38,703 nucleotides of DNA from a virus (Duplodnaviria > Heunggongvirae > Uroviricota > Caudoviricetes). Position numbers and translations under genes: made by a program. The notes under the pieces are model-generated. The model searched no databases. It saw only the letters and a program-made list of their open reading frames with translations, and was not told the DNA's origin. Numbering within the stretch: the first letter of the stretch is position 1; every line of letters begins with the position of its first letter. The stretch lies in IMG/VR virus record IMGVR_UViG_2724679538_000007, positions 1-38,703 of that record; one strand, 5' to 3'. Below are positions 1-7,788 of this stretch, one piece after another.

Positions 1-1071
1 TTATTTGATTTCAATTTTGTCCCACTCCCTGCCTCTGTCATCACGATACTGTGATGCCATGGTGTCCGACTTATGCCCGAGAAGATGTTGAGCAAATTTA
101 TCGCTTATCTGCTTCTCATAGAGTCTTGCAGACAAACTGCGCAACTCGTGAAAGGTAGGCGGATCCCCTTCGAAGGAAAGACCTGATGCTTTTCGTGCGC
201 GCATAAAATACCTTGATACTGTGCCGGATGAAAGCGGTTCACGACGAGTAGATGCAATTATGGTTTCTCCGCCAAGAATCTCTTTGCATTTATCAAGTGT
301 TTCCTTCATTGATATCCCGAGGGCATCAACATGCAATGCTGTTGGGATGGCAATTTTTACGCCTGTTTTGCTTTGCTCGACATAAAGATATCCATCTACG
401 ATATCAGACCACTTCATTTCGCATAAATCACCAACTCGCTGCCCGGTAACAACAGCCAGTTCCATTGCAAGTCTGAGCCAACATGGTGATGATTCTGCTG
501 CTTGATAAATTTTCAGGTATTCGTCAGCCGTAAGTCTTGATCTCCTTACCTCTGATTTTGCTGCGCGAGTGGCAGCGACCGGGTTTGTTGTTATATGGCC
601 TTCAGCTATTGCCTCTCGGAATGCATCGCTCAGTGTTGATCTGATTAACTTGGCTGACGCCGCCTTGCCCTCGTCTATGTATCCATTGAGCATTGCCGCA
701 ATTTCTTTTGTGGTGATGTTTTCAAGTGGAGCATCAGGCAGACCCCTCCTTATTGCTTTAATTTTGCTCATGTAATTTATGAGTGTCTTCTGCTTGATTC
801 CTCTGCTGGCGAGGATTTTTTCGTAGCGATCAAGCCATGAATGTAACGTAACAGAATTATCACTGTTGATTCTTGCTGTCAGAGGCTTGTGTTTGTGTCC
901 TGAAAATAACTCAATGTTGGCCTGTATAGCTTCAGTGATTGCTATCCTCCTGTCTCGGCCTAATCCAAACTCTTTACCCGTCCTTGGGTCCCTGTAGCAG
1001 TAATATCCATTGTTTCTTATATAAAGGTTAGGGGGTAAATCCCGGCGCTCATGACTTCGCCTTCTTCCCAT
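1..1071 (-). CDS. int: Tyrosine integrase, lambda Int type (356 aa)
   Basis: Translation matches phage lambda Int over its full length as I recall it (MGRRRSHERRDLPPNLYIRNNGYYCYRDPRTGKEFGLG ... HELRSLSARLYEKQ ... GHKSDTMASQYRDD). Confidence 0.97.
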   Translation of the reverse strand: MGRRRSHERRDLPPNLYIRNNGYYCYRDPRTGKEFGLGRDRRIAITEAIQANIELFSGHKHKPLTARINSDNSVTLHSWLDRYEKILASRGIKQKTLINYMSKIKAIRRGLPDAPLENITTKEIAAMLNGYIDEGKAASAKLIRSTLSDAFREAIAEGHITTNPVAATRAAKSEVRRSRLTADEYLKIYQAAESSPCWLRLAMELAVVTGQRVGDLCEMKWSDIVDGYLYVEQSKTGVKIAIPTALHVDALGISMKETLDKCKEILGGETIIASTRREPLSSGTVSRYFMRARKASGLSFEGDPPTFHELRSLSARLYEKQISDKFAQHLLGHKSDTMASQYRDDRGREWDKIEIK

Positions 1072-1267
1072 TTCTGATCCTCTTCAAAAGGCTACCTGTT
1101 ACTGGTCGATTTAAGTCAACCTTTACCGCTGATTCGTGGAACAGATACTCTCTTCCATCCTTAACCGGAGGAGGGAATATCCTGCATTCGCGCACCCATC
1201 GACGAACTGTTTCAAGGCTTCTTGGGCGTCGCTGGCGAGCGTTCCACTCCTGAAGTGTCAAGTACAT
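1049..1267 (-). CDS. xis: Excisionase (72 aa); the 102-aa track ORF carries a spurious N-terminal extension
   Basis: MYLTLQEWNARQRRPRSLETVRRWVRECRIFPPPVKDGREYLFHESAVKVDLNRP matches lambda Xis; overlaps the int start as in lambda. Confidence 0.9.
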   Translation of the reverse strand: MYLTLQEWNARQRRPRSLETVRRWVRECRIFPPPVKDGREYLFHESAVKVDLNRPVTGSLLKRIRNGKKAKS

Positions 1268-1459
1268 CGCAAAGTCTCCGCAATTACACGCAAGAAAAAG
1301 CCGCATTGATGCGGCGATGGTAGGTCTGGATATCATTGAGCAATGAACAGGCCTCATCGAGTGTGAGGCGGGTTAGTCCTTGCGTAGCTCGCTAATTCTT
1401 CTGTAAGTCTCTGGTGCTTTGCTATCTCACGCAGTGCCTGATAGTCAATCTTGCTCATG

Positions 1460-1759
1460 TCACATCACCCTGAATCCGTTGCATTTACGTAAGAAATCGC
1501 AGATATAGCCCTTCATTTTTTCATGCCAATCTCGATCATTCCCATTGCACCAACCATCAGGTGGAGTCCAGTTTTCTATCAGAGCAGCCATTTTCTTTGC
1601 TTTCGCCGGAGTAGCTGTTGCGGTATCGCAGTAATGACGAGTGTCAACCAACGCATCCATACCATCGATATCAAGTACGCAAAACCATGTGTGATTCGGC
1701 ATTCCAACAGATGGTATTTGTTGCCCACGTCGGCGTTTATCAATGAGATATACACTCAC
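1460..1759 (-). CDS. Hypothetical protein (99 aa), int-proximal early-left accessory gene
   Basis: GTG start preceded by AGGAGG at 7 nt; start overlaps the stop of the upstream gene (GTGA), implying translational coupling; no family recognised. Confidence 0.55.
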   Translation of the reverse strand: MSVYLIDKRRRGQQIPSVGMPNHTWFCVLDIDGMDALVDTRHYCDTATATPAKAKKMAALIENWTPPDGWCNGNDRDWHEKMKGYICDFLRKCNGFRVM

Positions 1760-2205
1760 TGGTTACCTCCTTTGCGAAGCTCTGCGGCGAACTCGTTAAG
1801 TGATATGTAGCAATCTCCAAATGTTAACGAACCGCTCGACTGCATATGCTCCATAGCCATATCCACGCCCTGCGCCCGTACTTCAGCCAGGAAAGCATCG
1901 GTGGCTGGGGTTTCAGTAACATCATCTTCCCATTCGCTAAACTCCTCACGACAAAAGTCATTAAATTCCTTCTCAGATTGCTTAAGCGAGGTATTTTCAG
2001 CAGCCATCTTCGCGCATTTAGCCTCAAGGTTATCAATCGTGATTCCAGCAGAACGACACTCCCGCAACGCCGTTTCTAGTTTTGATTCAAGTTCACCGAA
2101 CTTACGCACCAGATATTCAGCGTTTGTTTCGTTAACCTTTAAATCTCGGGGGATGCATTTACCTTTCAGAAAACCATCCATCTCAATTAGTGACATTTGT
2201 TTCAT
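1756..2205 (-). CDS. Hypothetical acidic protein (about 149 aa; track ORF extends to a GTG at 2223)
   Basis: Long ORF co-oriented with the PL operon, stop overlaps the next gene start; start codon ambiguous (ATG 2205 or GTG 2223). Confidence 0.5.
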
Positions 2206-2362
2206 TTCTTCCCACTCCGCCACATCGCATTCAGATATTTGTTGTCATTAACAGAACCGAAACTATTTCTTTTAAGCAATTCCTCTCTCGATGGCATTGG
2301 CTTTACGCGTTGGCGAATAATCATTTCTGCCGGAAGAATGCCGGGATTGTATGCAAGTCCTC

Positions 2363-2653
2363 TCATGATTTACTCTCCACGAACTGGTCAACAGCCATGC
2401 TAAGTGACACACCTAAAGTCTCGATATGTTGCTGAATATCCTGTAGCGTCTGCGCCTGAGATAACAGGATTTCACGGTTGCATAACTCTTTAACCAGATG
2501 CTCAAACTTGCTGTAATAACCGATACGACTTAGTGTTTCTTTGCCTGCATTCTCGCCTTCTTTGATAATTCCTCTTTCGCTAAGAATCAGATCGTGTTTG
2601 GTTCCGGTAATAACGTATTTTCCGAGGTCGATGTTTAGCTTCATTGTTTTCAT
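2363..2653 (-). CDS. Hypothetical protein (96 aa)
   Basis: ATG at 2653 with GAGGAA RBS 7 nt upstream, immediately after the stop of the 2664..2960 gene; the longer track ORF (to 2806) would overlap that gene. Confidence 0.45.
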
Positions 2654-2663
2654 TGTTAATTCC

Positions 2664-2960
2664 TCAGTCATTACTGATAGCGCCATAGCGTGAGCGGTAA
2701 TTACGCAGGCGCGGGTCGATATATTCAGGAAAGTGGGTATATGTGGCTTTGCGGAATGGTCGGATTGATGTCTGGTAAATTCGCTCGCGTTCTTCTTTCT
2801 CTGCAAGCCATATACAGTGGCGAAATTCCTTTTCCTCTTTCGCTTCCTGCGGTAGAGACATTATCCGGTCGTAGTTTTTTCTGAATTTATCCAGCACCTC
2901 CGATACGGAATTGCCGGAACAGCGGCGCGGGTCATCCGCACCATACAGAGGCGCTGGCAT
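2664..2960 (-). CDS. Hypothetical protein (98 aa)
   Basis: ATG with AAGGA RBS; sits between the SSB-like gene and downstream unknowns in the same operon. Confidence 0.5.
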   Translation of the reverse strand: MPAPLYGADDPRRCSGNSVSEVLDKFRKNYDRIMSLPQEAKEEKEFRHCIWLAEKEERERIYQTSIRPFRKATYTHFPEYIDPRLRNYRSRYGAISND

Positions 2961-2983
2961 GATGGAATCCTTATGTTGCTACT

Positions 2984-3367
2984 TTAGAAGGGAATTGAAT
3001 CGTCGTATACAGGAGTGTTCTGCTGGTTACTACTTTGCTGCTGCGGGCCATTTCCTGAAGCTGCAAATCCAATCTTTGCATTCAGTAATTCAAGAGTGAT
3101 TGATTGACCATTTTGCCCCTGATAAACATCAACCCTGATGTTTTCTCCGGTAATTTCTACAATGCCACCTTCAACAAGAACACTACGGTAGTAATCCGCT
3201 TGCGCTCCCGGCTTGGCAAATACAACGGCGCTGTAGTTTGTCCATTCTTTCTTTTTTGTCTGGCGATCGTAATACTGAACGCCAGCACGGATGTTGAATC
3301 CGATATTTTCCCCGGCCTGAAACTCTCTTGCGGGCTTGTTTAGTCTTACAGTAATCGAATGTGCCAT
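2984..3367 (-). CDS. Single-stranded DNA-binding protein-like (127 aa)
   Basis: C-terminal acidic tail ...PVYDDSIPF resembles the SSB C-terminal protein-interaction motif (DDDIPF); Gln/Gly-rich linker; directly downstream of erf. Confidence 0.6.
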   Translation of the reverse strand: MAHSITVRLNKPAREFQAGENIGFNIRAGVQYYDRQTKKKEWTNYSAVVFAKPGAQADYYRSVLVEGGIVEITGENIRVDVYQGQNGQSITLELLNAKIGFAASGNGPQQQSSNQQNTPVYDDSIPF

Positions 3368-3972
3368 TAAGCAGCCGCTCCTTCTAATTCGTCTCGTCTG
3401 ATGTTGTAAACGTCCTGCGCTTTGTGCTGCTCAGGTGTGCCTTCGAGCATCTTCCACGCTTTGGCGAACGCCTGTTTAAGCTCTTCTAAGGTGTTTTTCT
3501 GCATTGCTGCGTCAGTGAATGCTTTTAGAACCTGTTCAGGTGTAGGTGATAGTTTTGATTGCTTTGCTGCTGCGTTCTGCTGATGTTTATGCTCGTCGGT
3601 ATCTGCATCTTTCGCATCATCAATGCCGAACAAACCATTGAGGCAATACTTGCGTGCATAAGAGCTTGTAGCTCCCGTAACTTGTGCAGAATCCATTCCT
3701 TTCTTGCTTTCTTCCTCTCGTGCAAGAGCAGTTGCCGTATGACTGTTTTCGCCATCGGTAATAGTTGCCGTGGCTTTCACGTAATACCGATCACCAATCA
3801 ACACAACTTCATCGCTGATTGATAAAAACAGGCCATTCAGTAACGGCTTAACGCCTTCAAGAATGTCTTCGCAGCTTCTGTATTTATATTTACCGAATGA
3901 GTTGTACTGATTCTTTGGCGCGTTCAGATTCTCCTGAATAGCTGCCAGTCTTGCGTAAAATTCTTTGCTCAT
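3367..3972 (-). CDS. erf: Erf family single-strand annealing recombinase (P22 Erf-like, about 201 aa)
   Basis: MSKEFYARLAAIQENLNAPKNQYNSFGKYKYRSCEDILEGVKPLL ... YYVKATATITDGENSH ... YARKYCLNGLFGIDD matches P22 Erf as I recall it; genuine ATG at 3972 (track ORF starts at an upstream TTG). Confidence 0.9.
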   Translation of the reverse strand: MSKEFYARLAAIQENLNAPKNQYNSFGKYKYRSCEDILEGVKPLLNGLFLSISDEVVLIGDRYYVKATATITDGENSHTATALAREEESKKGMDSAQVTGATSSYARKYCLNGLFGIDDAKDADTDEHKHQQNAAAKQSKLSPTPEQVLKAFTDAAMQKNTLEELKQAFAKAWKMLEGTPEQHKAQDVYNIRRDELEGAAA

Positions 3973-4073
3973 ATGATTGTTCTCAGAATGGACACGGCCC
4001 AAGGAAATAACGCTGATTTAATACTTCGACTCGGGACAAGTTAAGGCATACCCGCATTCCTTCGCGGTCACCA

Positions 4074-4232
4074 TTATGGCGATACCAGAGAGCTTTCTGC
4101 GTGTACATGCGTCTCTGTAACTTGCTCTCCTTCACTGTGGTTGCAAGTGACATGAATATCTCCTTCGTTACCGATTAATTCTTTCATCTGACGAATGAAT
4201 TCTTCGTCTGACCAGTTATCCGTAAAACTCAT
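4074..4232 (-). CDS. Hypothetical small protein (52 aa) in the kil/arf position
   Basis: ATG at 4232 with AAGG RBS, overlapping the stop of the cIII-like ORF; between cIII-like and erf where P22 carries kil/arf; no recognisable similarity. Confidence 0.4.
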   Translation of the reverse strand: MSFTDNWSDEEFIRQMKELIGNEGDIHVTCNHSEGEQVTETHVHAESSLVSP

Positions 4233-4399
4233 GGACGGCCTTGTTGTTTCAAAATATCCCAAAGCTTTTCGAGCAAACTTTTCATTCTTGGTTGTTTAAA
4301 GTCTGCTCCGGTTAAAATATTTTTTCGTGAATGCTGTACCGATAAAATCGGGTTGAAAGGGCGAACCGATGCCGCCCCTGCAATAGCGAACTGTTGCAT
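4229..4399 (-). CDS. Possible CIII-like small regulator (56 aa)
   Basis: MQQFAIAGA... resembles the lambda CIII N-terminus (MQYAIAGW...); AAGGAG RBS 6 nt upstream; right size and position for cIII; similarity is weak. Confidence 0.4.
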   Translation of the reverse strand: MQQFAIAGAASVRPFNPILSVQHSRKNILTGADFKQPRMKSLLEKLWDILKQQGRP

Positions 4400-4585
4400 A
4401 GGATGCTCCTTCTGTTTGATTGCATAACGAAAACGCCTCGAGTGAAGCGTTATTGGTATGCATATAAAAAGGCCCCCACATCGGAGGGCAAAGAAGATTT
4501 CCAATAATCAGAACAAGTCGGCTCCTGTTTAGTTACGAGCGACATTGCTCACATAGCAGACTCGTAAATCTGCTATAGGCGCTTA

Positions 4586-4741
4586 TTCGCATCGCATGAC
4601 AACATCAAATTTTTCGAGATTACTTTGTCGCAACAATCCTTCTTCTACTCGGTCAGCTTTTCTATAATTATCAAATTCGAAATGTTTAATTACTTCTTTT
4701 GTTTCTCGCTCTATAACTTCAACGATGTATCTCTTATTCAT
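4586..4741 (-). CDS. Hypothetical small protein (51 aa)
   Basis: ATG overlaps the TAA stop of the upstream gene (TAATG coupling); not in the ORF track because it is under 60 aa. Confidence 0.3.
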
Positions 4742-5010
4742 TACTCATCACCTAGGGCTTTTTTGATAGCTTCGCGAGCCTTATTAACAGCTCCATACCA
4801 TTCTGGATATGTTGTCGTTGTTCTATTTTCGGCTTGCTTAAGTAATAACTGAAGTGCTTCAAGTAAATCCGGTGCAGCCATAGCCAACCTTCCATTTGCT
4901 ACGGCCTCTTCTGTTTCTTTACCGGATAGGGCCATTCCCGGGTGTGAAAATAAAATTAAGCCTGCAAAATTGGCTTCTCGCCAATTTTTCCTAGTACCTT
5001 TAAATTCCAT
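4741..5010 (-). CDS. Hypothetical protein (89 aa)
   Basis: ATG at 5010 with GAGG RBS (track ORF begins at an upstream TTG); PL operon orientation. Confidence 0.5.
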   Translation of the reverse strand: MEFKGTRKNWREANFAGLILFSHPGMALSGKETEEAVANGRLAMAAPDLLEALQLLLKQAENRTTTTYPEWYGAVNKAREAIKKALGDE

Positions 5011-5049
5011 GTTAGCCTCTGTTGTTTGTGCCAAAAATAAAGGCCACCA

Positions 5050-5301
5050 TCAGGCAGCCTTGTTGTAAATGTTGCAGGTATCAAGTAAGTAATTAGATGG
5101 AGCGCCATAAATTATGAATTCATCGTTTGTCGGGTCCATCTCCATCTCTTGGCCTATTGCCATTCTTGCGTCAGTGTCATCAGAGGCGAAGCATAAAACA
5201 GCCCACGCACCCATTGTTTTAAAAAGAACTGCAATTGGCTGTGGTTTTACTGAATTTGCGTTAGCGCGAAAATCACAAATCGCACTTTCATGAAACTCCA
5301 T
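5050..5301 (-). CDS. Hypothetical protein (83 aa)
   Basis: ATG with GAGGT RBS; PL operon orientation. Confidence 0.55.
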   Translation of the reverse strand: MEFHESAICDFRANANSVKPQPIAVLFKTMGAWAVLCFASDDTDARMAIGQEMEMDPTNDEFIIYGAPSNYLLDTCNIYNKAA

Positions 5302-5355
5302 ATATCACCTCAAATAAGTGGTTTGCTGCGAAAGTAAATACGCTTAAGTTACCTG

Positions 5356-5493
5356 TTATTTATCCCACCAAGTTCCGTATCTATCTATCCAGTTACACCA
5401 ATCATCGACACTCCATTTTGTTGTGTCGCATTTTGGCAACTGGCATGAATATCTACCTTCTTTGTAAAGTCGGCGTTTGACTTTCTTGAGCAT
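5356..5493 (-). CDS. Hypothetical small Cys/Trp-rich protein (45 aa)
   Basis: ATG with GAGGTG RBS 4 nt upstream; MLKKVKRRLYKEGRYSCQLPKCDTTKWSVDDWCNWIDRYGTWWDK; under 60 aa so absent from the track. Confidence 0.35.
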   Translation of the reverse strand: MLKKVKRRLYKEGRYSCQLPKCDTTKWSVDDWCNWIDRYGTWWDK

Positions 5494-5679
5494 GGCTCAC
5501 CTCAATCGTAATAAGCTGGAATTGATTTTCCGCGTTGCTTCTGGCGGCCTGAGCAAGTCACACCCATTTCACTGCGTGGCTTGCGGTAGTAAAGATTGTG
5601 CCTGTCTTTTAACCACATCAGGCTCGGTGGTTCTCGTGTACCCCTACAGCGAGGAAAATAGTAAAATCCTCTCACCCCC

Positions 5680-6042
5680 TTATTTTGTCAGGGGGATATC
5701 TCCTTCAGTTCTGACCATTCGCCTTAATACTTTCCTTAAGTCGATGTAAAGTTGAAGGTCTCCATTTGCTGCGGCATCAGCCATTTTTTGCCTGACAAGC
5801 AGTAATGTTTCATACGGCTCAATAAGAATATCGTCATGAGTAATTAGGTGAAGCGTTGCCGCATCAACTATTCCTAGAGCTGCGCCAAGTATCAAAAATT
5901 CCCTGCTATTTTTGTCGCATGAGGAGATAAGCGTATTTAGCGCATACCTAATATTCTTTATAGCTGTTGTTAATGCTGCAATTTCTTCTATGGCGTCCTC
6001 TTCAATGAGCTTTTTAAGCTCATATTTTTCTTCCTGACCCAT
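5680..6042 (-). CDS. Hypothetical protein (120 aa), first gene downstream of N
   Basis: ATG at 6042 with GAGGT RBS, 2 nt after the N stop; the track ORF (148 aa) would overlap N. Confidence 0.55.
   Translation of the reverse strand: MGQEEKYELKKLIEEDAIEEIAALTTAIKNIRYALNTLISSCDKNSREFLILGAALGIVDAATLHLITHDDILIEPYETLLLVRQKMADAAANGDLQLYIDLRKVLRRMVRTEGDIPLTK
5684..5712 (-). terminator. Hairpin plus U-rich stretch after the first gene downstream of N (tL1-like)
   Basis: Minus strand reads CCCCCT-GACAAAATA-AGGGGG followed by TGAGAGGATTTTACTATTTT. Confidence 0.4.
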
Positions 6043-6044
6043 AA

Positions 6045-6317
6045 TTACCTCGCCGTCAATTGTTTTGATTTCCGGTAGCCTGCCGCGTAAACGGCTACGT
6101 TTGGCAGGCAAATACTTCCACTGCATTCATCTGCCTTCTTGTAGCGAAGGCTTCCGAGTGATGCTGCTTTATCTGCTCTGACGCAACCAGAGAGCTTTAG
6201 CGCAATTTTTCGCGCCAGTCGCTGCTCTTGCATTGCCTGTTCACGTTGAGCCTGTCTGCGTGCTCTGCGGCGATTTCTGGCGTTATCGTCAGCCAGATAT
6301 GTAATGACTACTGTCAT
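6045..6317 (-). CDS. N-type transcription antiterminator (P22 gp24-like, 90 aa)
   Basis: N-terminal arginine-rich motif NARNRRRARRQAQREQ; C-terminus LPNVAVYAAGYRKSKQLTAR resembles P22 gp24; GGAGG RBS; nutL just upstream. Confidence 0.85.
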   Translation of the reverse strand: MTVVITYLADDNARNRRRARRQAQREQAMQEQRLARKIALKLSGCVRADKAASLGSLRYKKADECSGSICLPNVAVYAAGYRKSKQLTAR

Positions 6318-6423
6318 GTTGACCTCCGATGATTGACTTTGGCGGTGACGCGCCGGGTGCTTATCTTCCGGTTGCCGTCGTGCAGCTGCACTTCACGTCA
6401 CCCCAAAGCCAATTACTCTTTGG

Positions 6424-6684: not shown

Positions 6685-7053
6685 TTAGTCAGCGAAGGTT
6701 AAGACGAGAATTACCTTAATGATGTCTGCTACAACAGACACGGCCATAGATAAACCAAAGACGATCCAAGCCACAGTGATGTCTTCACTACCATCGTATA
6801 GAGTTCCGTAATCACTGGTGTAAGGCGTAAATGTCGCGCCTTGATACAATAGGTATAAGCTTGATCCATAGAGGATAAATGCAGATATCCCTTGTATTGC
6901 TATGATCACCAGAATCATGAAACGAGCTGATCTATGCGCCCAAGCCTGGCTTATTTTTTCTGATAGAGATTTCGCAATAAAAGCATGCGCTAAGCCGTAA
7001 ATTGTCGAGATTGCCAACATCCCAAAAAAGCTTGCTATAGCGGTTCCAACCAT
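6685..7053 (-). CDS. Small polytopic membrane protein (122 aa) co-transcribed with cI; candidate exclusion/abortive-infection factor
   Basis: ATG 18 nt after the cI stop with AAGGGGG RBS; three hydrophobic helices predicted by eye; occupies the rexA/rexB position. Confidence 0.6.
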   Translation of the reverse strand: MVGTAIASFFGMLAISTIYGLAHAFIAKSLSEKISQAWAHRSARFMILVIIAIQGISAFILYGSSLYLLYQGATFTPYTSDYGTLYDGSEDITVAWIVFGLSMAVSVVADIIKVILVLTFAD

Positions 7054-7071: not shown

Positions 7072-7788
7072 TCAAACCAGTCTGAGTTTTGTCTCAATTG
7101 CAACGCCTATAATCTTGCAGTTTCCATTGATTGGCACGAGAGGCCATGCAGGATTAAGTCCCTTGAGGTATTTATTTCCGCCGTCGATTATCAGCTTCTT
7201 GAATGTTGCTTCGTTAGAGTCAGAAAGTTTTGCTATGACCAAGCTGCCGTTGATCGCCTCCCTTCCGGTATCGAAAAGAACGAATGTTCCCTCTGGAATG
7301 CTTAACCCAACCGGTGCCGTCATTGAATCACCTTCCACTTTAAGCCAGAACGCATTACCTTGAATATGCGCGTCAGACTCAAGCCAAACATCTATGTCTT
7401 TAATGGTGTATGGTTCGCATGCTTCACACCACGAGCCAGCCTGGATACTGCTTAACACCGGATACCTCTTTCCTGCTCTGTATTCCCCTGCATACCTTAC
7501 GTTGGCATCGCTCTTAAGGCTTTCTGCCTGTTCTGCAACCTTGGCAGCAATTGACTGGCTAAAATCAGCAATTGAGACTTGCAACAATCGTGCAAAACCA
7601 GATGCAACCTCAACGTTTAGCGCATTTCTGCCATTAAGATAATGCCCTACCGCTCCTTGGGTGATACCCAGTTCATCAGCGATTGAGTATTGGGTTATTC
7701 CCAATTCTTTCTTTTTTGACTCATACAAAGCCTTAAGCCGCTTAGCGTCTTCCAGCTGTTCTGTCGTCAGTGATTTTTTATTTTCCAT
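7072..7788 (-). CDS. cI: CI-type prophage repressor (HTH N-domain plus LexA/S24-like autocleavage C-domain, 238 aa)
   Basis: LTTEQLEDAKRLKALYESKKKELGITQ and FWLKVEGDSMTAP ... FKKLI ... LNP parallel lambda CI ([47 protein letters not shown]). Confidence 0.93.
   Translation of the reverse strand: MENKKSLTTEQLEDAKRLKALYESKKKELGITQYSIADELGITQGAVGHYLNGRNALNVEVASGFARLLQVSIADFSQSIAAKVAEQAESLKSDANVRYAGEYRAGKRYPVLSSIQAGSWCEACEPYTIKDIDVWLESDAHIQGNAFWLKVEGDSMTAPVGLSIPEGTFVLFDTGREAINGSLVIAKLSDSNEATFKKLIIDGGNKYLKGLNPAWPLVPINGNCKIIGVAIETKLRLV

Follow-up and report, generated by a model that had tools for sequence, protein, structure and literature searches.

Which genes fill the interval between xis and the SSB-like gene of the viral record IMGVR_UViG_2724679538_000007 (IMG/VR, Caudoviricetes), and do they form a unit of their own? 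The window, by which we mean the whole 38,703-nucleotide (nt) stretch of this P22-like genome and whose positions supply all coordinates given here, carries at 1460–2960 a run of small genes that an earlier note had read as an accessory operon of four unknown genes, in a slot that often holds lysogenic-conversion or anti-defence cargo. We find that these genes very probably belong to the early-left (PL-type) operon of the phage, a P22-like lambdoid one with int and xis of the lambda/HK97 type, and form its promoter-distal part, a reading to which we assign a probability of roughly 85%. The interval is made up of a P22-type abc2/ORF56/eaE set and two cassettes of one gene each. It is a real feature, if an ordinary one, and has already been catalogued: the order of the families is annotated in ES18 and HK446, and each gene has a counterpart at least 94% identical in published phages or public sequence collections. 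All four open reading frames (ORFs) described earlier between xis and the SSB-like gene exist on the minus strand, but the chain consists of six coupled ORFs, of which the 54-amino-acid (aa) gene and the 34-codon ORF had been overlooked. In the order of transcription, the six are:

2664–2960, minus strand: abc2, encoding anti-RecBCD protein 2, 98 aa (PF11043, phrog_656, PDB 8b1t_A)
2363–2653, minus strand: DUF5405 gene, 96 aa, a single-gene cassette between abc2 and the DUF2737 gene (PF17399, phrog_154)
2202–2366, minus strand: DUF2737 gene, 54 aa, isoelectric point (pI) 10.7 (PF10930, phrog_1117)
1756–2205, minus strand: gene for an acidic coiled-coil protein of the EaE / HK97 gp37 / HK620-CUS-3 HkaH type, 149 aa (phrog_614)
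1460–1759, minus strand: DUF7739 gene, 99 aa, GTG start, a single-gene cassette (PF24881, phrog_1239)
1354–1458, minus strand: 34-codon ORF, probably a truncated ea22/ead-type 5' end (sub-threshold PF13935; match to the lambda ea22 5' end)

These ORFs are genuine genes, because of their pattern of selection, the absence of stops from the four genes first described and the kept lengths of their products. For this analysis, homologous sequences taken from IMG/VR viral-contig loci were compared codon by codon. All genes are under purifying selection, with ratios of nonsynonymous to synonymous polymorphism (pN/pS) of 0.09–0.37 (DUF7739 0.31; 149-aa gene 0.13; DUF2737 0.29; DUF5405 0.09; abc2 0.37; SSB-like gene 0.16). 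Polymorphic sites in the homologues fell mainly on third codon positions, and in this comparison the four genes first described were free of internal stops; 3 of 71 sequence variants of DUF2737 contained one. Protein homologues as distant as 42–54% identity kept the same length. The pN/pS values, the third-position variation and the conservation of length rule out that the ORFs are untranslated, an outcome that the earlier note had named as one that would speak against it. The other outcome that it had named, assignment of all four genes to known families, has essentially come about as regards family but not as regards function: where no family had been recognised, the genes can be placed as Abc2, DUF5405, EaE/HK97 gp37/HkaH and DUF7739, and three of the four have no established function. 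Scans with NCBIfam and PADLOC gave no match for any of eight proteins, and the Rfam scan, the tRNA scan and the base-composition profile of the whole window returned nothing notable.

The firmest of these assignments is that of abc2. The 98-aa protein matched PF11043 with 204.7 bits (cut-off 25, E=1.8e-61) over residues 1–98, phrog_656 at 2.8e-56 and PDB 8b1t_A (8B1T) at 7e-56, and it is 92% identical to P22 Abc2. Relative to the P22 protein there are two differences in residues 6–52, the stretch that was modelled on RecC in the RecBCD-Abc2 structure (PMC9836394), and Pro68, the PpiB site, is conserved. In the published model, Abc2 redirects RecBCD in such a way that the phage recombinase Erf can use the single-stranded DNA that RecBCD produces (PMC9836394). 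Abc2 of the window should likewise bind RecC and, according to that model, would redirect RecBCD towards phage recombination. Its gene has the ribosome-binding site (RBS) AAGGA 8 nt ahead of the ATG. It is strongly supported that abc2 closes an Erf/SSB-1b/Abc2 recombination (Rec) module, whose genes erf (PF04404), SSB-1b and abc2 are contiguous at 2664–3972. The concept of the Rec module and the classification of HK97 gp40 as SSB-1b are taken from published work (PMC12315714). The label "SSB-like" that the 127-aa neighbour had received was correct, as it is a homologue of HK97 gp40. The two further genes of the module are:

2984–3367, minus strand: SSB-1b gene, 127 aa (94% to HK97 gp40; phrog_44)
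3367–3972, minus strand: erf, encoding a single-strand annealing protein (PF04404 at 5.1e-44; 99% to HK97 Erf)

Two more genes complete the P22-type set. The 54-aa protein scored 103.8 bits against PF10930 (cut-off 25, 4.2e-30), with a further match to phrog_1117, and is 98% identical to HK97 gp38 and 74% to P22 ORF56; for ORF56 the PF10930 score is 141.6 bits. The 149-aa protein matched phrog_614 at 1.9e-61 and is 75% identical to CUS-3 HkaH, 57% to HK97 gp37 and 64% over 58 aa to P22 EaE (E=1e-22). In the EaE/gp37/HkaH group, DUF2737 lies upstream in 33 of 36 instances. The proposal that the genes of the interval replace the abc and ea genes of P22 can thus be set aside, since the interval itself holds P22-type abc2, ORF56 and eaE homologues. 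Longer relatives of the 149-aa protein contain PF13935 (Ead_Ea22) as an inserted module; to one of them, a 239-aa protein carrying PF13935, residues 1–84 of the 149-aa protein are 95% identical and the C-terminal ~50 residues nearly identical. The 149-aa copy looks like the product of an internal deletion between repeated LEAKCA..AAEN motifs of the longer form. PDB sequence searches with the 149-aa protein returned nothing meaningful. Its family is very large and variable: the clusters at 90% identity that matched at E<=0.001 number over 7,500, and singletons make up the majority of the best 120 listed. A screen for filamentation in UTI89 in which hkaH and hkaJ appear was considered as a lead to function and rejected: the enriched fragment includes kil2, and the authors credit such prophage matches to kil.

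The two remaining genes appear to be mobile units. The 96-aa protein matched PF17399 with 25.4 bits (cut-off 21.6) and phrog_154 at 1.6e-32. Its closest published relative, at 99% identity, is HK446 gp29, whose record, like that of ES18 gp45, notes similarity to Sf6 gene 24. As the DNA of HK97, CUS-3 and P22 aligns to the window up to 2367 and resumes at 2650, the DUF5405 gene is a clean single-gene insertion. The phrog_154 label "Replication initiation protein" was not adopted; neither the sequence nor the fold of DUF5405 resembled that of a known replication initiator. In the IMG/VR loci, abc2 lies directly upstream of DUF5405 in all 89 with visible upstream sequence, and DUF2737 follows directly in 96 of 96. 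In prophages of Providencia and Klebsiella, divergent homologues of DUF5405 are found between modules of YqaJ and SSB, or GamL and RecT, and int, and these are without abc2 or DUF2737, so that DUF5405 as an obligate partner of Abc2 is rejected. Its strict adjacency in E. coli phages is due to shared flanks rather than to dependence on Abc2.

The 99-aa protein scored 73.6 bits against PF24881 (cut-off 27, 2e-20), matched phrog_1239 at 4.8e-55 and is 94% identical to CUS-3 ECRS218_0058; by protein comparison, DUF7739 is absent from lambda, P22, HK97 and HK446. The family is small, with 73 representatives in 1.84 billion proteins. An exhaustive profile search recovered only stand-alone proteins of ~95 aa, the multi-domain matches being spurious repeats or merged gene calls. 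Upstream of DUF7739 in the IMG/VR loci we found DUF2737 (36), the 149-aa type (29), the gp37 type (15) or the EaE type (9), and downstream assorted ea genes. Prophages of Plesiomonas and Serratia have divergent DUF7739 genes, which are also part of early-left operons, in different company. Because divergent homologues of both families occur in different early-left company, DUF5405 and DUF7739 are free-standing early-left cassettes.

How are these genes expressed? All genes in 1–4000 lie on the minus strand and follow each other, in the direction of transcription, as erf, SSB-1b, abc2, DUF5405, DUF2737, EaE-type, DUF7739, 34-codon remnant, xis and int. The tight coupling, the co-orientation and the variable slot between recombination genes and xis/int that were described earlier all hold. 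The stop of the 149-aa gene and the start of the DUF7739 gene overlap in a GTGA at 1756–1759, which is preceded by AAGGAGGT, the strong AGGAGG RBS noted in front of the 99-aa gene. The 54-aa gene shares ATGA overlaps with both of its neighbours, at 2363–2366 and 2202–2205, and the 34-codon ORF starts 1 nt past the DUF7739 stop. Because of the ATGA at 2202–2205, the ATG at 2205 is preferred as the start of the 149-aa gene over an in-frame GTG at 2223 that would yield 155 aa. The idea of a separate operon does not survive, as the genes continue a minus-strand string that runs from an N-like gene (6045–6317) via erf to int. A simple consensus scan detected no sigma-70-like site on the minus strand at 1000–4600. 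The only hairpins are those at 4489–4432, 3847–3832 (inside erf), 1369–1351 and 1315–1300. On the same strand, the upstream region contains the N-like antiterminator gene and a cI-like repressor gene (7072–7788). From the lack of a sigma-70-like site on the minus strand, the 4-nt overlaps and the upstream N-like gene, we infer that the interval is expressed distally by N-antiterminated transcription from PL. The whole string would then be transcribed only on infection or induction, and would be silent in a lysogen.

The interval is a mosaic at the DNA level. Block 1–1457 matches HK97 (99.4%) and block 1–1315 lambda (98%), block 1426–1794 with the DUF7739 cassette matches CUS-3 (94.6%), as does 1850–2287 (95.7%), and block 1993–4085 matches HK446 (95.5%). 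Short conserved boxes lie exactly at block boundaries, at 1426–1458 (an ea22/ead-type 5' end encoding MSKIDYQALRE) and at 1755–1792. These boxes probably serve as recombination junctions. The features at this end of the interval are:

1755–1792, minus strand: conserved junction of 38 nt, comprising an EaE-type 3' end, an RBS and the next start codon
1300–1315, minus strand: terminator-like hairpin with T-run between the 34-codon ORF and xis (a "putative terminator" is annotated at the same position in HK97)
1049–1267, minus strand: xis, lambda-type (100% to HK97 Xis, 98.6% to lambda Xis)
1–1071, minus strand: int, lambda-type (DNA of 1–1315 98% identical to lambda)

The 38-nt junction recurs with 87–89% identity at the gp37-type 3' junctions in HK97 and HK446, where the flanking DNA differs, and 24 nt of it are 92% identical to the 3' end of P22 eaE. 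At the other box, the 34-codon ORF is 97% identical at the protein level to an unannotated HK97 ORF, within DNA (1000–1457) that is 100% identical to HK97. Its residues 2–22 resemble PF13935 positions 1–21 below the cut-off, its first 31 nt are 87% identical to the 5' end of lambda ea22, and ~33 nt (1426–1458) match the 5' end of CUS-3 ECRS218_0059 (Ead_Ea22+DUF551). The ORF is probably a truncated 5' remnant of an ea22/ead-type gene at a recombination junction. The hairpin at 1300–1315 belongs to the block shared with lambda (98%). Cassettes would thus be swapped between phages via recombination at short conserved junctions, for which we propose the end of abc2 with the start of DUF2737, the eaE-type 3' end with its RBS, and the MSKIDYQALRE box of ea22-type starts.

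In the model that we propose for this operon, the four small proteins without known function are individually dispensable early proteins, each of which most likely binds a host (or phage) protein stoichiometrically. Such binding may lead to host takeover, anti-defence or modulation of the lysis–lysogeny choice, as for the lambda exo-xis genes, which affect that choice (PMC7093339, PMC10834534). Three points weigh against our reading of the interval. First, its exact combination of genes occurs in no single database record; the best coverage of 1300–3400 reaches 86% for an E. coli genome and 76% for a phage. The lack of a record with the full combination is, however, normal for lambdoid mosaics. 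Second, the promoter scan used a consensus only, so that weak or non-sigma-70 promoters could escape it. Third, the role of DUF5405, DUF2737, DUF7739 and the EaE-type protein as binders of host proteins is one that we only infer, and a full-text search of the literature retrieved no functional study of DUF2737, DUF5405 or DUF7739, the first being named in a single unrelated paper and the other two in none.

Are the small genes cargo for anti-defence or host takeover, with at least one of DUF7739, DUF5405 and DUF2737 inhibiting a host immunity or DNA-metabolism protein? This is possible, if doubtful. It is compatible with the anatomy of a PL operon, as it concerns function. In its favour, these are small early genes which evolve under purifying selection and move as single-gene cassettes, and they adjoin abc2, a known counter-defence gene. 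The best fold matches of DUF7739 are small protein-binding inhibitors, namely the DNA-mimic protein DMP12, a CdiI immunity protein and YfbM. Its mildly basic pI of 8.3 rules out a DMP12-like DNA mimic by charge, however, and no cognate toxin is found nearby. Foldseek comparison of the DUF7739 model with predicted viral structures (BFVD) gave no match, PDB sequence searches with DUF5405 and DUF7739 returned nothing meaningful, and the absence of the three DUFs from the functional literature likewise tells against such a role. The AlphaFold2 model of DUF5405 has a predicted local distance difference test (pLDDT) score of 90 and consists of two helices and a four-stranded beta-sheet; neither this fold nor that predicted for DUF7739 gave a firm lead to function.

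We consider it unlikely that the genes act as lysis–lysogeny modulators like the lambda exo-xis genes, with the EaE-type coiled-coil protein and its neighbours biasing the developmental decision. Their position between recombination genes and xis is equivalent, relatives of the 149-aa protein carry the Ead_Ea22 coiled-coil domain, and the 149-aa protein itself resembles Ea22 in its coiled coil and acidic tail; lambda Ea22 favours lysogeny (PMC7093339). PF13935 gave no match at E<=0.1 for the 149-aa protein, P22 EaE, HK97 gp37 or CUS-3 HkaH, however. BLASTP with the 149-aa protein reached only E=0.19 for lambda Ea22 and E=0.065 for P22 Ead, and the interval has no homologues of ea8.5, orf60a, orf61 or orf63.

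The gene order raises a further question: does DUF2737, with or without DUF5405, partner Abc2 and Erf in redirecting RecBCD, as part of an extended recombination module? DUF2737 is linked to abc2 more tightly than DUF5405 or DUF7739 is. Among 80 loci picked for Abc2 alone, the gene after abc2 is DUF2737 in 74 and DUF5405 in 6, and among 80 picked for DUF2737 alone, the upstream gene is abc2 in 65, DUF5405 in 10 and neither in 5. DUF2737 thus follows abc2, directly or past DUF5405, in 80/80 Abc2-selected and 75/80 DUF2737-selected loci. The phage database holds near-equal numbers of records with full-length abc2 (224) and full-length DUF2737 (223), and the adjacency persists across abc2 lineages of 62–99% identity. 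Such a partnership is nevertheless improbable. The five exceptional DUF2737 loci are without upstream abc2 and have in its place a 104-aa gene, itself preceded by a gene of ~145 aa. A further ~470 phage records match the DUF2737 core only (residues 23–49), Salmonella and E. coli siphoviruses making up most of the sampled rows. The one core-only record inspected is that of Salmonella phage GSP006 (locus L172, 2941–3096); there, the gene with the DUF2737 core is one of the small genes that separate the lysis genes from the terminase, and no abc2 is found within 3 kb. This placement suggests a function of DUF2737 that is independent of Abc2 and, together with the 5/80 exceptions, weakens the case for an obligate partnership of DUF2737 with Abc2. 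Nor have abc2 and DUF2737 diverged together, as Stx phages pair an abc2 of 62% identity with a DUF2737 of 96%. For DUF5405, the divergent homologues beside other recombination modules argue in the same direction.

Expression from the prophage as lysogenic-conversion morons, for which position near int as a common site of such cargo is the sole support (the argument of the earlier note), is very improbable, as the consensus scan found no promoter-like site on the coding strand, an own promoter and terminator, as would allow expression from a repressed prophage, were not found, the genes are translationally coupled to their neighbours by 4-nt overlaps with hairpins only outside the gene string, base composition is unremarkable and the PADLOC defence-system models gave no match.

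The promoter-distal PL operon remains the preferred reading of the interval. We hold it unlikely that, within this operon, a so far unrecognised inhibitor or partner of some host protein for DNA repair or immunity is encoded among the small conserved early genes. If there is one, DUF7739, with its immunity-protein-like alpha/beta fold, and DUF2737, which follows abc2 in all Abc2-selected loci, are the foremost candidates. In its most specific version, the hypothesis is that DUF2737 may be an overlooked accessory factor of the Abc2-RecBCD hijack. The main value of the present analysis is a corrected annotation, with a functional-looking abc2, two overlooked genes and cassettes already present in ES18, HK97, HK446 and CUS-3. 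Temperate phages of enterobacteria widely carry DUF2737, DUF5405, DUF7739 and EaE-type proteins, all of them under purifying selection and without known function. Their placement beside a RecBCD-modifying gene makes them inexpensive candidates for screens of anti-defence and host-takeover proteins, and the tight linkage of abc2 and DUF2737 provides a concrete hypothesis for recombineering systems.

Several observations concern the surroundings of the interval. Upstream of erf, no kil homologue was detectable at 4000–6320, and a weak cIII-like match (53% over 34 aa) lies at 4349–4450. The hairpins at 4489–4432 comprise two terminator-like structures, and five small PHROG families of unknown function are found at 4583–6126, ahead of the N-like gene. 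A 122-aa gene (6685–7053, phrog_6534) lies directly downstream of the cI-like repressor gene on the same strand. The lambda rex genes occupy the slot downstream of cI. Because it lies in this slot, the 122-aa gene is a candidate prophage-expressed gene. The window starts exactly at the int stop codon and is P22-like (Lederbergvirus-type), combining lambda/HK97-type int and xis with P22-type virion genes; its best overall genome matches are phages HZ41, IME10 and APC_JM3.2.

How does the interval compare with its counterparts in named phages? The exo-xis region of lambda (ea22, ea8.5, orf61, orf63, orf60a) occupies the same early-left slot and is likewise a mosaic of small, non-essential early genes. 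It adjoins an Exo/Bet/Gam recombination module, whereas that of the window is Erf/SSB-1b/Abc2, and none of the lambda exo-xis proteins has an intact homologue in the interval. P22 is closer in design, as its order erf, abc1, abc2, ORF56, eaE ... eaC, xis, int matches the window in orientation and position, with abc2 at 92%, ORF56 at 74% and the central module of eaE at 64% over 58 aa. It has abc1 where the window has SSB-1b, int and xis of another type, no DUF5405 or DUF7739, and seven ea genes against two in the window.

CUS-3 and HK620 share with the window the succession of hkaH and ECRS218_0058, with 94.6% DNA identity over the DUF7739 cassette and its flanks and 75% identity of HkaH. Unlike the window, CUS-3 lacks DUF5405 and has more ea-type genes past DUF7739 (Ead_Ea22+DUF551 and others). 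In HK97 the order is abc2 (gp39), gp38, gp37, and in HK446 abc2, gp29, gp28, gp27 (gp30–gp27). From ~1993 in HK446 and ~2011 in HK97, to ~4090, their DNA is 95–97% identical to the window. HK446 carries DUF5405 (gp29, 99%), whereas HK97 is without this insert but agrees with the window at 99.4% over the DNA that holds int, xis, the hairpin and the 34-codon ORF. Both differ from the window in that their gp37-type proteins are merely 57% identical to the 149-aa protein and in that both lack DUF7739.

ES18 (AY736146) differs from the window in its bacterial-type SSB, an extra gene 47 within the recombination module and further ea genes after gp43, and no DUF7739 gene is annotated in the stretch that was inspected. 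Downstream of erf and ssb, however, it carries the same set in the order of the window: abc2 (gp46), the Sf6-gene-24-like gp45, the orf56-like gp44 and the eaE-like gp43, the last three annotated as "function unknown".

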